NCBI GenBank assembly: GCA_964016885.1
Contig: OZ024743.1
Location: forward strand, 75,764,001-75,828,000
DNA: 64,000 bases
Direction: 5' to 3'
DNA from: Eledone cirrhosa
Lineage: Eukaryota
The notes under the pieces are model-generated. The model saw only the letters and a program-made list of their open reading frames with translations, had not been told where the DNA came from and searched no databases. Both the position numbers and the translations under genes were made by a program. Each line of letters begins with the position of its first letter. The stretch's first letter is position 1. Positions 17,341 through 59,289 of the stretch are shown one piece after another.

Positions 17341-17452
17341 TAAAATAAGAAGGAATAATAGACACAATATACCTAGTTTTTCTTCGTCCCGACTGTACAG
17401 TTTCGATGGTCACTATGCAAAAATGTTATATCATAGATATGTAACATTGTTG
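17341..17452 (-). ncRNA. Truncated hammerhead ribozyme 3' half plus tail ending in (TA)n (PLE-type terminus)
   Basis: Minus strand: ...catagtgaccatc GAAAC TGTACA GTC gggacg. Stem III is palindromic and the cleavage triplet is GUC. The CUGANGA half is missing. Confidence 0.55.
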
Positions 17453-17574
17453 TGAGGTAAGCCAAAAAGTTCCCCGTCTAGTTATGTTTAAAAAACTAAT
17501 ATATTTACCTAAGTTTTTACATCATCTCTTCTGAAATAGTCACCTTGCTCAACAATAAACCGGTCCAAGTTTTT

Positions 17575-17780
17575 ACAATCTGAGTTCAAATCTCACTGAG
17601 GTTAACTTTGCCTTACAGGGTCGATAAAATAAAGTACCAGTAATGCACTGGTATTTTAGACTGTTTACTGGTTCATTATTTTATCGACCCCTAAGGATGA
17701 AAGGCAAAGCTAATCTTGGTGGGATTTGAACTGAGAATATAAAGGACCGGAAAACAACTGCTACACACTTGTCCGACAAG
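17575..17780. mobile_element. SINE fragments in opposite orientations
   Basis: ctgagttcaaat...gtcgataaaataaagtaccag (+), then ttttatcgaccc..ggatgaaaggcaaag..gatttgaact (-). Confidence 0.8.
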
Positions 17781-18174
17781 AATCTAAACTATAATAAAGT
17801 AAGGTTGCGGGACTGCGTACGGTTTATTTCTTTTAATCCAGTTATTAAAATAAGTTGGATTACTTTGAATAAATAATGAATGAATATTACATAATTTATG
17901 TCCTAAATTTCGAAACTAAATTTCGTAAACATAAATAATTTAAAATTGACTTCTTTTCAAATTTTCCTTCACATTTCTACACTTCCGGTATATAGTCGCC
18001 AGCACCACCACTTAAACTACCATATATTTAGAAAGAGAGTGTATGATGAGAGAGATAGAGAGATTATGATTTTCTACACGCTGACGCGTATGAGTGTGCA
18101 CATACATACATCTATATGTACGAGTATATAACTATAATCGCGCAAACACAAATTTATAAAAATACACGCTCACG

Positions 18175-18305
18175 GACATTCACGCAAATACACATACATT
18201 CACACAAATACACATACATTCACACAAATACACATACATTCACACAAATACACATACATTCACACAAATACACATACATTCACAAAAAGACACATACATT
18301 CACAT
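18175..18305. repeat. 20-bp minisatellite cacacaaatacacatacatt, about 6 copies
   Basis: Direct inspection. Confidence 0.9.
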
Positions 18306-18344
18306 ACAAACATACAACCAAGTGCTCTCACGAGCATCACCAGT

Positions 18345-18690
18345 TACCTCTGTTTGGCGAGCCACCAGTGAAGATAAGAATCTCGCTGTCAGTAGCCCGA
18401 CTGCCCCAAACATCTCGAACGCGACAGGCTGGATAATGTATTTTATGATTTTGTTCCGTTCAGCTGCGGATGCTGTAGCTCTCGCCCTTACCGCTGCATC
18501 CAGAATGTGGGAAGAAGCAAAAGAGTAATTAACTGTGACGTCCCAGGTAAGGCACCTGCCTTACCTGGTAAGGCACCTGACCAGGAGCACAGAGTAAGAC
18601 CGTCAAATCTTTTCCCATCAATTCAAGACAACCCAGATGGTTCCAAAATTGAGGGGATGTTTGCCCGGGCCAAAGCTCTTCAGTGGTAAT
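18345..18690 (-). pseudogene. CRE-like non-LTR element, restriction-like endonuclease remnant
   Basis: Minus frame gives RCLTWDVTV..SFASSHILDAAVRARATASAAERNKIIKY..QPVAFEMFGAVG, a PD-(D/E)xK RLE pattern. Confidence 0.7.
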
Positions 18691-18869
18691 AGAATAGTGT
18701 GTGTATGTGCGCGTGCGCATGAGTTTGTCGGCTTTCTTAAATTAGAGACACGTGTGTGTGTGTCACTGTTTTTAAGTTAGACATATATATTTACACATAC
18801 ATACATTCACACAAACACACATACACATTGCGTGATGGCCGTGTGGACAGAATCCCTCAAATTTATATA

Positions 18870-19495
18870 TATGTGAATGGAGTTAGAGAAATTCAAATAT
18901 CTTGGAGCTGTGTTCATGAGTGATGGAATGCAGGAGGCTGAATTAAGTGCAATAATTGCAAAAGCTGATGCAGTAATGCGCCAGCTTCATCAATCAGATG
19001 AAGGAGGGTAGGTGTAAAAGCCAAACTCGCTGTCTTCCTGGTATTCCTGCCAACTCTTACCGAGGATCATGAATCTTGAGTAATGACCAAAAGAATACTA
19101 TTGCAAATAAAAGTGGCAGAAATGGGGTTCCTCCGAAGGGTCTTTGGAGTAATGTTACTCGATAAAGTGCATAGCTCAGGGACCAGAGAGTCACTCCTGG
19201 TAGAGCCGCTACTTCTCCGAATTGAGGGATCACAACTCCGATATTATGAGCATGTGGTTAGAATGTCTCAGTAAAGAATCGCTGGACACATTTTACAGAC
19301 AAAACCAGCCGTCAAGAGACCCGAGGTAGACCCTGAGCAAGATAGTTGGATAACCTTCATGAGCTTGGCTGGTCACGCTTTGGGATCCAGCTGGATCAGT
19401 TAGAGATGTTTGCTACTGACAGACTCGTTGGAAGGAGTGTTTGAGAAGGACTCTGCCCCCACGACTCTCTCAGAAATAAGTGAGTGAAGAAGAAG
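18870..19495 (+). mobile_element. RTE-like LINE 3' portion
   Basis: KFKYLG, IKVAEMGFLRRVFGVMLLDKV..R..L.VEPLLLRIEGSQLRYYEHVVRM, ending in a gaagaagaag tail. Confidence 0.85.
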
Positions 19496-19627
19496 ATATT
19501 GTCAATTTACTTTTCAATTTACATATATCTGTATGCGTATATATTTGCGTCTAATACCAATATGCACATTACATATGCTAGTAGAAAACTGCCCGAAGAG
19601 CGGTTTTGCTGCTATTGATTGTAATAA

Positions 19628-19835
19628 TGGTTTTAGCACAAGGCCAGCAATTATTGTTGTCGGACAAGTGCGTAGCAGTTGTTTTCCGGTCCTTTACATT
19701 CTGAGTTCAAATCCTACCAAGATTAGCTTTCCCTTTCATCCTTAGGGGTCGATAAAATAATGTACTAGTAATACACTGAGGTCGATCTAATCGACTTTTC
19801 CCTCCTCTTCAAATCGTTGACCTTGTGCCTAAATA
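19628..19835 (+). mobile_element. SINE copy with a short inverted SINE tail at its 5' side
   Basis: ctgagttcaaatcc...ctttcatccttaggggtcgataaaata...tcgacttttcc...ccttgtgcctaaa. Confidence 0.8.
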
Positions 19836-57259: not shown

Positions 57260-57901
57260 ATATATATGTATATATATACATATATGTATATATATATATA
57301 TACTACCATTTATATATATATATAGACTACCATTTGACTGTAAATAACATTATTCTTTGCCTGTTAATAACATTATTCTTTCTTCACCATTTCCTTAACA
57401 TGTTCAACATCACCAACATTTTACACCAATACAAATTCCCCCCTTTGATAATGCATAAAATGCTGAAACCGGTAATAGACAATTATTAAATATATAAATA
57501 AAAAATAAATGCCATTGTTAATAAATAAATAAATTAACTAATACCTTAACACTTCACACAAATTAAAATATTTTGTTTTAAACATTTTCTAACCCAGAAA
57601 AAAGATTAAAAAATAAAAGGGAAAAAAATTTTTTTCTTCCTAATAATCGTCTTTTTCTCCCTATTTTCATATATATATATATTCCAACTCGTGTGCTCCT
57701 TCTCCACATTTTTTTAATTATATATATATATATATATATATATATATATATATATATATATATACATATATACGTATATATATATATATATATATACATA
57801 TTAGTGTGTGTGTGTGTAAGTATGCACACGTACACACACATATACACACACATATATAATTATACATATGTAAGTATGGGTTATATCAAATACTATTAAT
57901 T

Positions 57902-58095
57902 GTTTCTACTTTTGGCACAAGGCCAGAAATTACTCAGTGTATTACTGGTACTTTATTTTATCGACCCCGTAAGGATGAAAGGTAAAAGTTAACCTCGGTG
58001 GGATTTGAACACAGAATGGAAAGGGCCGTAACTCTATTCTGAGTTCAAATCCCGCCTTTCATCCTTACGAGGTCGATAAAATAAAGTACCAGTAA
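57902..58095. mobile_element. SINE (-) joined to an inverted SINE fragment (+)
   Basis: gtttctacttttggcacaaggcc...gggatttgaac...ctgagttcaaatcccgcctttcatccttacgaggtcgataaa. Confidence 0.85.
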
Positions 58096-58117
58096 TAATG
58101 TTCGATTCGTTTGTAAA

Positions 58118-58420
58118 GGCACGTGGCTTTGTGGTTAGGGTATTCGGCTCACAATTGTAAGGTCGTGAGTACGATTCCCGGCGGTACGCTGTGTCCTTAA
58201 GCAAGACACATTATTTCACTCAGCTGGCAAAATGGGTTGTACCTGTGATTCTAAGGGCCAGCCTTGTCACATTCTGTGTCACGCTGAATCTCTCCGAGAA
58301 CTACGTTAAGAGAACTCGTGTCCGTGGAATGCTCTCCACTTGCACGTTAATTTTACGAGCAGGCTGTTCCATTGATTGTACCAACTGGAACACTCGTCGT
58401 CGTACCCGACGGAGTGCCTT
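58118..58420 (+). mobile_element. CORE-like tRNA SINE (second family)
   Basis: ggcacgtggctttgtggttagg...gagtacgattcccgg...gtgtccttaagcaagacac. Confidence 0.75.
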
Positions 58421-58608
58421 TAATATATATATATATATATATAGTATTAAGGATACTATTTATGGTTATGTATATACTAAAACTTTTTATAGTTATGTAT
58501 ATTTTAAACCCTAAACAGTGAAAGACAGTCATTTATTACTACCTTATTACCAGTAAGATAAATAGCTCAATGTAATAACATCAGTTGTTCTACAGAGCAG
58601 TTATATAG

Positions 58609-58691
58609 AAATCACATGAATCAAAGTTCTGTTCAAACCATTTATTGTAAGCTAATACATGGCTTGAACAGAACTTTGATTCATGTGATTT
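58609..58691. repeat. 33-bp inverted repeat abutting (TA)n
   Basis: aaatcacatgaatcaaagttctgttcaaaccat / atggcttgaacagaactttgattcatgtgattt. Confidence 0.9.
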
Positions 58692-58749
58692 ATATATATA
58701 TATATATATATATATATATATATATATATATATATATATATATATATAT

Positions 58750-58931
58750 ATAGGAACCAGTAAGACCCCGACGGCTGAGCTCAAGCCGTTTCGACGGCTA
58801 ATTAGCCGTCGAAACGGCTTGAGCTCAGCCGTCGGGGTCTTACTGGTTCCTATTACCCACTCTACTACCCTAAGTATTGAGTACTTTGGTGCGTTATGGT
58901 CCACCTGGTTCCTTACCACATTTCCTTCGTT
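58750..58931 (+). mobile_element. PLE-type terminus with a perfect spacerless 104-bp palindrome (58750-58853) centred on hammerhead stem II
   Basis: GACGGCTA-AT-TAGCCGTC-GAAACGGCT-TGAGCTC-AGCCGTC. (TA)n lies on both sides. Confidence 0.85.
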
Positions 58932-59028
58932 ATATATATATATATATATATATATATATATATATATATATATATATATATATTTCGTTTCTATATGTGA
59001 TTTCTTTCTATATATATATATATATATA

Positions 59029-59289
59029 TTTCGTCTGAATTTGTTTAGCAAGATTCTTTATCTGAAAACGTGTGTTGAAACCGATGTTGTTATACTTTGG
59101 GAGGGTCATGTTGCCAATAAGAAACACACGCACCAATTTAGACGGCTATTTTAGTCCAGAAATCGCCGTCGAAACGGCTTGAGCTCAGCCGTCGGGGCCA
59201 TACTTTCTCCTATTACCCACTCTACCACCCTATATTGAGTACTCTGGTGCGTTATGGTTCACCTGGTTCCTTACCACAACTCCTCCGTT
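59029..59289. mobile_element. Chimeric head-to-head fusion of two (TA)n-associated termini
   Basis: 59029-59135 is the reverse of the 42.76-42.86 kb family. 59141-59289 is a second copy of the 58.8 kb family with its native stem II. Confidence 0.8.

Follow-up and report, generated by a model that had tools for sequence, protein, structure and literature searches.

Hammerhead ribozymes beside (TA)n tracts in Eledone cirrhosa: ends of Penelope-like elements and non-coding retrozymes that may share an insertion machinery

Why do type I hammerhead ribozyme motifs recur a short tail upstream of TA microsatellites, in repeats that are otherwise unrelated? The question is raised by the window analyzed here, 64,000 nucleotides (nt) of the 3.0-Gb assembly of Eledone cirrhosa (C4:75764001-75828000), in which an earlier sequence-only reading had listed nine such stretches and had taken them for (TA)n-targeted ends of Penelope-like elements (PLEs) or for non-autonomous retroelements. 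The evidence supports that reading in outline: all nine stretches are present where it had placed them, the sites are real, and both kinds of element occur, with the corrections given below. Eight of the nine hammerhead sites fall in seven hammerhead-bearing repeat families; the ninth, at 40929, was rejected as a hammerhead, being a fold-back junction, palindromic, with the inverted tail of the 40821 element. The 3′ ends of the seven families, four of them from PLEs and three from non-coding units, were all likely put into pre-existing (TA)n by Penelope enzymes.

The families are referred to by working names (A17, B31, C40, D40, F42, G57, H59, and further K, M, and N). A first look at the genome gave at least 659 candidates for A17, 650 for B31, 3621 for C40, 832 for D40, 3231 for F42, 445 for G57, and 3447 for H59; for each family, 40 candidates were scored and 15-25 loci (L numbers) were examined.

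Penelope-like and non-coding families

Compared by BLAST in 21 pairs, the seven families share nothing except one 11-nt match, and the sequence-only reading was right to call them unrelated. When extended 5′, four of them reach PLE open reading frames (ORFs) with reverse transcriptase (RT) and GIY-YIG endonuclease (EN), and three stay non-coding, two as tandem units and one as a stand-alone unit. B31 (31158), D40 (40821), G57 (57190), and H59 (58793/59141) are almost certainly the 3′ ends of ordinary PLEs, and this part of the picture is established biology (PMC4209133, PMC8557442). A complete G57 copy (L178) comprises a (TA)n tract, a pseudo-long terminal repeat (pLTR) with a hammerhead, a 100-nt 5′ untranslated region (UTR), a broken RT-GIY-YIG ORF, a 3′ UTR, and another hammerhead; the two hammerheads lie 3.26 kb apart (pLTR-ORF-pLTR), an arrangement with a pseudo-LTR at both ends that is shown for G57 only. 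The tail of G57 is its own 5′ UTR. RT and C-terminal GIY-YIG occupy a single ORF in L178/L179, L180, and L176. B31 is joined to RT and EN in L180 and has EN upstream in 6 of 20 loci, D40 is contiguous with RT and EN across a 1.9-kb UTR in one copy only (L176), and H59 is linked to the RT C-terminus and EN only, with EN directly adjoining it in L040 and, in L030, lying on the inverted arm. No (TA)6 run intervenes in the ORF links of these four families.

Because the profile libraries were blank (neither RT nor GIY-YIG was recognized in the PLE ORFs by Pfam, NCBIfam, or PDB, which counts against the assignment), the naming of these ORFs rests on motifs and, for G57 only, on atlas neighbors. A Cys-rich CNC-x5-CPL-x2-C linker, one of two features considered for placement in the Neptune or Nematis clade, stands between RT and EN. 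In the atlas clusters nearest to the G57 ORF (0.94-0.97), HTH_animal is found in 31-98% of members, GIY-YIG in 12-14%, and RVT_1 in 14-23%, and a homologue search with a PLE ORF returned 77 proteins, mostly unnamed, many with PF26215. Copies of G57 are 95-99% identical to the window copy (top 40). A17, B31, and D40 had no match in the first 590-kb genome sample and are therefore minor families.

Mobilization had been attributed to GIY-YIG PLEs like those at 26-30 kb of the window. GIY-YIG PLEs are indeed joined to four families, but those two remnants are not shown to be the partners, because no listed family matches them at the DNA level, apart from one 80-nt match of 75% identity. B31 was likewise rejected as the 3′ end of the PLE at 28.5 kb of the window for want of any DNA match; the own 3′ end of that PLE bears a decayed hammerhead-like strand. 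Elsewhere in the genome, an uninterrupted 670-codon RT-GIY-YIG PLE frame (L184:3850-5859, minus strand) is ~41% identical to the remnant at 28.5 kb.

By their sequence organization, F42 and A17 are non-coding tandem units, i.e., non-LTR retrozymes. F42 is a unit of 428-429 bp, with dimers in L186 and L187, and it is circularly permuted: sequence that lies 3′ of the hammerhead, a short TA run included, stands 5′ of the hammerhead in other copies. The TA run at 42382, formerly regarded as the terminal target of the 42217 site, was rejected as an insertion target, as it sits inside the unit, which runs on to ~42521. In the window copy of F42, 10 nt are deleted from outer stem I of the hammerhead (42217-42255), and the promoter-like module described below is gone through 5′ truncation. 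F42 relatives with a GUA cleavage site form near-homogeneous arrays, one with at least nine hammerhead-bearing units (L265+L195) and one with the length of ~20 units, 15 of which pass the type I scan (L303). Positions 55577-55676 of the window hold what is left of another F-type retrozyme (L195 subtype).

A17 is a non-coding tandem unit of at least 750 bp, made up of a 5′ part, the hammerhead, a tail, and one or two copies of a short interspersed element (SINE), with a 752-bp dimer in L098. A PLE ORF upstream of A17 in L184 was considered as a partner and rejected, its EN being separated from A17 by eight TA runs. C40 is a stand-alone unit of ~230 bp with a common 5′ start in 11 of 15 copies; most copies (loci L107-L120) begin at one short motif (..AAAATGGCTG..), which is reminiscent of a YY1-type initiator. 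Retrozyme K, from outside the window, is a permuted tandem unit that exceeds one unit in 13 of 20 copies, has an inverted arm in 10 and a TA end in 18, and has EN nearby in a single copy, on the other strand. Other tandem hammerhead families were seen at L279:8749-9700 and L204 (310-311 bp) and at L273:6463-7200 (522 bp); both have TATAAG upstream of the core, and a CACGTG box occurs in L273 and A17.

Cores, abundance, and (TA)n ends

A strict type I scan of the window yielded two canonical cores (42221+ and 40879-) vs. none in each of 15 shuffles, and six cores vs. 0-3 in shuffles when one core mismatch was allowed; only 40821 and 42217 keep the canonical core in the window. No hammerhead was among the best 150 of 170 Rfam matches in the window at E<=1, where microsatellite-like microRNA models dominate. 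Among genome copies, the canonical CUGANGA/GAAA/UH core closed by three stems is present in 20/20 of D40, 20/25 of F42, and 12/15 of C40, these 12 relatives reading CTGATGA. The sites at 17391, 58793, and 59141 are 3′ halves cut inside stem II, and fuller copies have a U3-A8 core (11/15 in A17 and 4/25 in H59, the remainder being absent or truncated). G57 and B31 lack the U at position 4 expected of type I hammerheads: the G57 core is CAGANGA (U4-to-A) in 15/15 copies, and the 20 B31 cores comprise 16 CAGACGA, one CAGATGA, two CAGGCGA, and one unparsed, with A at position 4 in 19. The window copy of B31 has GUGC at the cleavage site instead of the GUGUA of its family. Stem III is palindromic, as had been noted, for ACTAGT, ACGT/AACGTT, ACTGTACAGT, and ACATGTGT; at 57190 it is closed but non-palindromic. 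The F42 monomer fold has z = -7.1. Outer stem I of the tandem units, on which the scan sets no condition, is better paired than in shuffled sequence (0-21 of 300 shuffles).

Abundance was estimated from 97 evenly spaced 10-kb stretches of the genome (969.6 kb) in two sets, with two stretches beside a known array left out. The scan takes three core types (canonical, U3-A8, and U4-to-A), leaves six other-core matches of the first set uncounted, and misses long-stem and truncated copies. It found 88 type I hammerheads (44 + 44) vs. shuffle means of 0.7 and 0.4 per sample, which were sorted by eye into ~20 families (30 keys); 12 of the 88 have U4-to-A cores, all of them G57. The density is 91/Mb (bootstrap 57-134), or 55/Mb when one match is counted per stretch and family, and therefore corresponds to ~1.6-2.7 × 10^5 hammerheads per genome.

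The link to TA/CA microsatellites that had been described holds for (TA)n, far above chance and directionally; CA is confined to the C40 family (6/15 copies). A (TA)5 run lies within 200 nt downstream of 43/53 de-duplicated matches, and of 35/45 when F-type matches are left out (background 20.8%, p 4e-16), whereas TA within 200 nt upstream is not significant in the latter set (14/45, p 0.07). The enrichment of hammerheads upstream of (TA)n was replicated in the second genome sample; at a distance of 100 nt, TA enrichment in the second set alone is not significant (9/44). Family by family, (TA)4 is found within 40 nt of the end in 24/25 copies of H59, 16/20 of D40, 14/20 of B31, 11/15 of G57, and 9/15 of A17. 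An inverted arm is present in 19/25 copies of H59, 12/20 of D40, 10/15 of A17, 9/25 of F42, 5/15 of G57, and 5/20 of B31, and tailed ends were seen in 4/15, 4/20, 4/20, and 4/15 copies. F42 has two main ends, a long one after a T6 run (16/25) and a short one (7/25, with 2/25 elsewhere), and ends in (TA)n in most of the copies displayed. Because these insertion scars are the same as those of PLE ends, the retrozymes were likely carried by Penelope enzymes.

Proposed mechanism and rival accounts

In the mechanism proposed here, the PLE endonuclease would nick (TA)n, and RT, copying an RNA of more than unit length, would initiate 3′ of the hammerhead at either of two internal positions; truncation, often early, and an inverted second arm would then yield the 'hammerhead + short tail + (TA)n' pattern. 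Non-coding tandem units would likely borrow the PLE protein in trans, and we consider it probable that retrozymes are moved by PLE proteins. In F42-type and related units, the octamer + TATA module predicted to act as a promoter lies within the repeat, immediately 5′ of stem I, and each unit would transcribe the next; cleavage at two successive hammerheads could then release a unit-length, possibly circular RNA retaining a copy of the promoter. Taken jointly, the full claim can be put forward tentatively: that the genome holds ~200,000 intact-looking hammerheads, that protein-free retrozymes captured the U6-type octamer-TATA promoter of the host (and, in one family, a tRNA-SINE as well), kept it via circular RNA, and were inserted into (TA)n by Penelope RT/EN, that their scars are direct genomic evidence of the unproven PLE-retrozyme partnership, and that U4-to-A is a working natural core.

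Several results weigh against this account. The family copies are best BLAST matches, a selection that favors copies reaching the query end. Predicted cleavage sites are GUU in F42 and CUU in G57, and minimum free energy folds of the monomers are mostly without hammerhead shape. C40 has no inverted arm (0/15) and TA ends in only 7/15 copies, and no autonomous PLE turned up that has sequence in common with F42, K, or A17. Further such points concern the promoter and its resemblance to that of U6 genes: octamer matches are clustered, all nine in the second sample set being F-type and seven coming from one array; family M is distantly related to F; the octamer is missing from 2/8 examined U6 loci and from three tabulated U2 loci; octamer and TATA stand 41-43 nt apart in the units vs. 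46-48 nt in U6; and the units contain T4-T6 runs, which would stop RNA polymerase III (Pol III).

On balance, a functional octamer + TATA promoter is slightly favored by the arrangement of the motifs. In F42-type units the octamer precedes the core by 88 nt and is followed by TATATA at a distance of 42 nt, and between F42 and the L195 type this module is 89% identical vs. 73-76% overall, with TATGCAAAT and ATAT invariant in nine sequences from four groups. The same geometry is shared by K, which has no BLAST similarity to F, and by M and N. Of the matches in the two sets, 14/44 and 9/44 have an octamer 60-115 nt upstream of the core vs. a background of 0.4%. The octamer, as ATGC(A/T)AAT, is found at -76 to -78 of U6 genes from three independent loci, together with TATA at -30; the U6 TATA rule, if applied to F42, would put transcription initiation inside outer stem I, 16 nt upstream of the core. 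Alignment of whole U6 upstream regions to F42 is no better than shuffles, and only the positioned motif comparison is informative.

Somewhat short of an even chance is left for octamer and TATA being an RNA polymerase II (Pol II) promoter (POU octamer-TATA or resembling those of small nuclear RNA [snRNA] genes) or a non-functional inherited motif, and not a U6-type Pol III promoter. The spacing shorter by 4-6 nt and the T runs within the units fit this alternative, as does the lack of an octamer in the tandem families L279/L204 (310 bp) and L273 (522 bp), and according to PMC6765202, Pol II seems to be the polymerase that transcribes the newt satellite. On the other side, a 12-nt TATGCAAATTAG is identical between F42 and the U6 locus L210, the U2 genes of this genome are without the octamer, the main F42 end falls just after the T6 run, and the invariance of the module across diverged groups speaks against a dead motif. 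U6 and U2 genes themselves form tandem arrays, with units of ~1.8 and ~2.2 kb, respectively (C19:31.78-31.84 Mb; C3:307.35-307.45 Mb; C13:36.17-36.18 Mb), and a SINE sits inside a U6 TATA box in L216.

Judged from their sequence, canonical cores quite probably cleave, and cleavage by the U4-to-A cores is doubtful. It is rather unlikely that most hammerheads are inactive passengers, dispensable for PLE mobility. U4-to-A in all of the young G57 copies and nearly all B31 copies would fit that possibility, as would reports that cleavage is unnecessary for insertion in vitro (PMC11167929) and that minimal PLE hammerheads have low activity (PMC4209133). However, CUGANGA/GAAA is retained in ~20 unrelated families whose paired stems differ, and U3-A8 covariation is seen in several (A17, H59, L147, L203/L271, and L289); kept cores and covariation therefore suggest selection on the fold, although the scan itself demands pairing. 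Core variants mentioned in the accessible text of PMC3088659 are U4C, U3-A8, and U10.1-U11.1, and not U4A; its supplement may hold U4 variants.

There is only a small probability that the (TA)n tracts are products of insertion and not landing pads, having been made or lengthened by RT slippage at an AT-rich start and then expanded. Ends do fall where the element reads AT/TA, with an overlap of 2-3 nt (H59 ..CTCCTAT, F42 ..CCATTTAT), F42 has an internal TA tract of its own, and a title in the reference list of PMC6765202 refers to microsatellites generated by RTE elements. Nonetheless, the direct and the inverted arm each run into (TA)n, and do so at different points of the element (16/25 H59 copies), 5′-truncated ends also adjoin (TA)n (L002, L019, L022, and L178), unrelated families crowd into the same TA tracts (40.2-42.7 kb), and (TA)n is named as a preferred PLE target in PMC8557442. 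Targeting of pre-existing (TA)n by these elements is the likely course of events. Just as improbable is that F42, K, and A17 are enlarged pLTRs of unfound autonomous PLEs, with arrays from later unequal crossing-over: they have every insertion scar of PLE ends, their tandem arrays (L265+L195; L303) are near-homogeneous, and a 2026 preprint (10.64898/2026.07.22.740005) traces retrozymes back to pLTRs and proposes that they were amplified locally in tandem, but copies scattered over many chromosomes have the unit's own 3′ part upstream of the hammerhead, a search of F42 loci (25 with 1.5-kb flanks and four extended to 10 kb) revealed no EN homology, and the EN near A17 is set apart as described above.

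Known systems and the window in detail

As far as the text consulted goes, the PLE ends described here resemble EN-bearing PLEs (PMC4209133, PMC8557442, PMC11167929) in their RT + C-terminal GIY-YIG ORF, pLTR hammerhead, palindromic stem III, long stem II, and U3-A8 variants, as well as in partial tandems, inverted 5′-truncated arms, an optional tail, and (TA)n or AT-rich targets. They differ in tails of ~85-200 nt vs. the 30-40 nt known, in a very high density, and in a U4-to-A core that is family-wide in two families and goes unmentioned in the text examined. According to PMC11167929, the tail arises when RT initiates internally, and the DNA that is cut is AT-rich. Animal non-LTR retrozymes, as presented in the available text (PMC7229834; 10.64898/2026.07.22.740005), likewise consist of non-coding 310-520-bp tandem units with a canonical type I hammerhead, low GC, a predicted self-paired monomer, and co-occurrence with PLEs; the units described here add the scars typical of PLEs (termini in (TA)n, two fixed 3′ ends, and the inverted arm), an octamer + TATA in several units, and SINE copies in one. 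The 2026 preprint infers the PLE origin of retrozymes from trees and, in the text seen, leaves the mechanism to be elucidated; the word 'promoter' is nowhere in it.

On its own, the PLE-end part is ordinary; less ordinary are the PLE scars, candidate U6-like promoter, and embedded SINE of the retrozymes, the copy number, and the U4-to-A cores. Young autonomous PLEs and retrozymes share target, two-end, and inverted-arm scars, and with a candidate promoter defined, trans-mobilization and promoter retention become directly testable. Newt satellite 2 has an snRNA-type promoter. Like Schistosoma SM-alpha, it has this promoter within the tandem unit, so placed that the next unit is transcribed from it and that it comes to lie in the 3′ part of the cleaved RNA, as is proposed here. 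In schistosome repeats, the internal promoter and successive cleavages regenerate a promoter-bearing unit (PMC6765202). The module found here differs in resembling the U6 promoter of this genome (with the octamer ~72 nt and TATA ~30 nt upstream of where transcription is predicted to begin).

Literature searches, mostly outside subscription papers, found nothing on octopus hammerhead ribozymes in main texts and none on metazoan retrozyme promoters (TATA; octamer/snRNA). The main text of a 2026 curated octopus repeat annotation, as far as available, has no mention of hammerheads, ribozymes, or retrozymes, and much sequence classed as 'SINE/unknown/simple repeat' in such genomes may therefore belong to this class. 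In the axolotl, whose genome is much larger, 120,000 retrozyme copies are reported (PMC7229834), a number that the estimated hammerhead count here matches or exceeds.

The features of the window are collected in Table 1. Two of them had been overlooked in the sequence-only reading, and a G57 hammerhead at 56045-55995 (minus strand) had likewise been absent from its list.

Table 1. Hammerhead-bearing repeats and PLE remnants of the window
Feature	Position	Strand	Basis
A17: 3′ half of U3-A8 hammerhead, long stem II, and tail; ends (TA)n/(TG)n	17338..17464	-	genome copies
PLE endonuclease remnant, broken (Cys linker, GIY-YIG motif); not the source of listed families	26140..26900	+	
5′-truncated PLE (RT C-terminus, GIY-YIG, 3′ UTR) between two (TA)n runs	28520..30756	+	
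B31: inverted 5′-truncated arm with long tail, ending at (TA)n 30756-30844	30845..31066	-	
B31: GIY-YIG PLE 3′ end; hammerhead 31155-31192, core CAGACGA; ends in (TA)n	31060..31247	+	
Overlooked site: 3′ half of a further hammerhead family (hammerhead part 40251-40266) and tail before (TA)24	40251..40316	+	full U3-A8 copy in L289
Overlooked site: small fold-back remnant of G57	40365..40449	.	
C40: decayed copy of ~230-bp stand-alone unit; minimal hammerhead 40639-40604; ends (CA)n/(TA)n	40512..40715	-	
D40: RT/GIY-YIG PLE 3′ end; hammerhead 40887-40821, canonical core intact; ends (TA)19	40778..40944	-	
D40: palindromic inversion junction (40926-40964) and inverted tail piece; no hammerhead	40926..41034	+	
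F42: inverted 5′-truncated arm, short end in (TA)n	41967..42195	-	
F42: non-LTR retrozyme copy; hammerhead 42217-42255; internal TA tract 42382-42422; long end ~42521 in (TA)n	42189..42521	+	
G57: inverted arm, second hammerhead 56045-55995 and 100-nt long tail	55885..56659	-	
G57: 3′ UTR and pLTR of young RT/GIY-YIG PLE; hammerhead 57185-57235, core CAGAAGA; short end in (TA)n	56567..57259	+	
H59: perfect fold-back (58750-58853), PLE 3′ end cut inside stem II, between (TA)31 and (TA)26	58753..58930	+	
H59: second 3′ half and ~85-nt tail, ending in (TA)12	59141..59289	+	

Further fold-back repeats adjoin (TA)n at 42680-42860, 59029-59140, and 58602-58698, with no hammerhead seen in the window copies. 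One tRNA-type SINE, which we take to resemble the octopus tRNA-SINEs, is present in many copies, some of them in tandem (~16.5, 17.6, 19.7, 20.2, 24.8-25.7, and 26.06 kb), and is also the SINE built into A17 units. At 35369-38690 (plus strand) lies a broken non-LTR element, presumably L1/Tx1-like, with a zinc-knuckle ORF, an AP (apurinic/apyrimidinic) endonuclease, and an RT by Pfam. Minisatellite arrays occupy 36-4707 (40 bp x116), 10869-16197 (43 bp x124), and 21243-22415 (49 bp x24).

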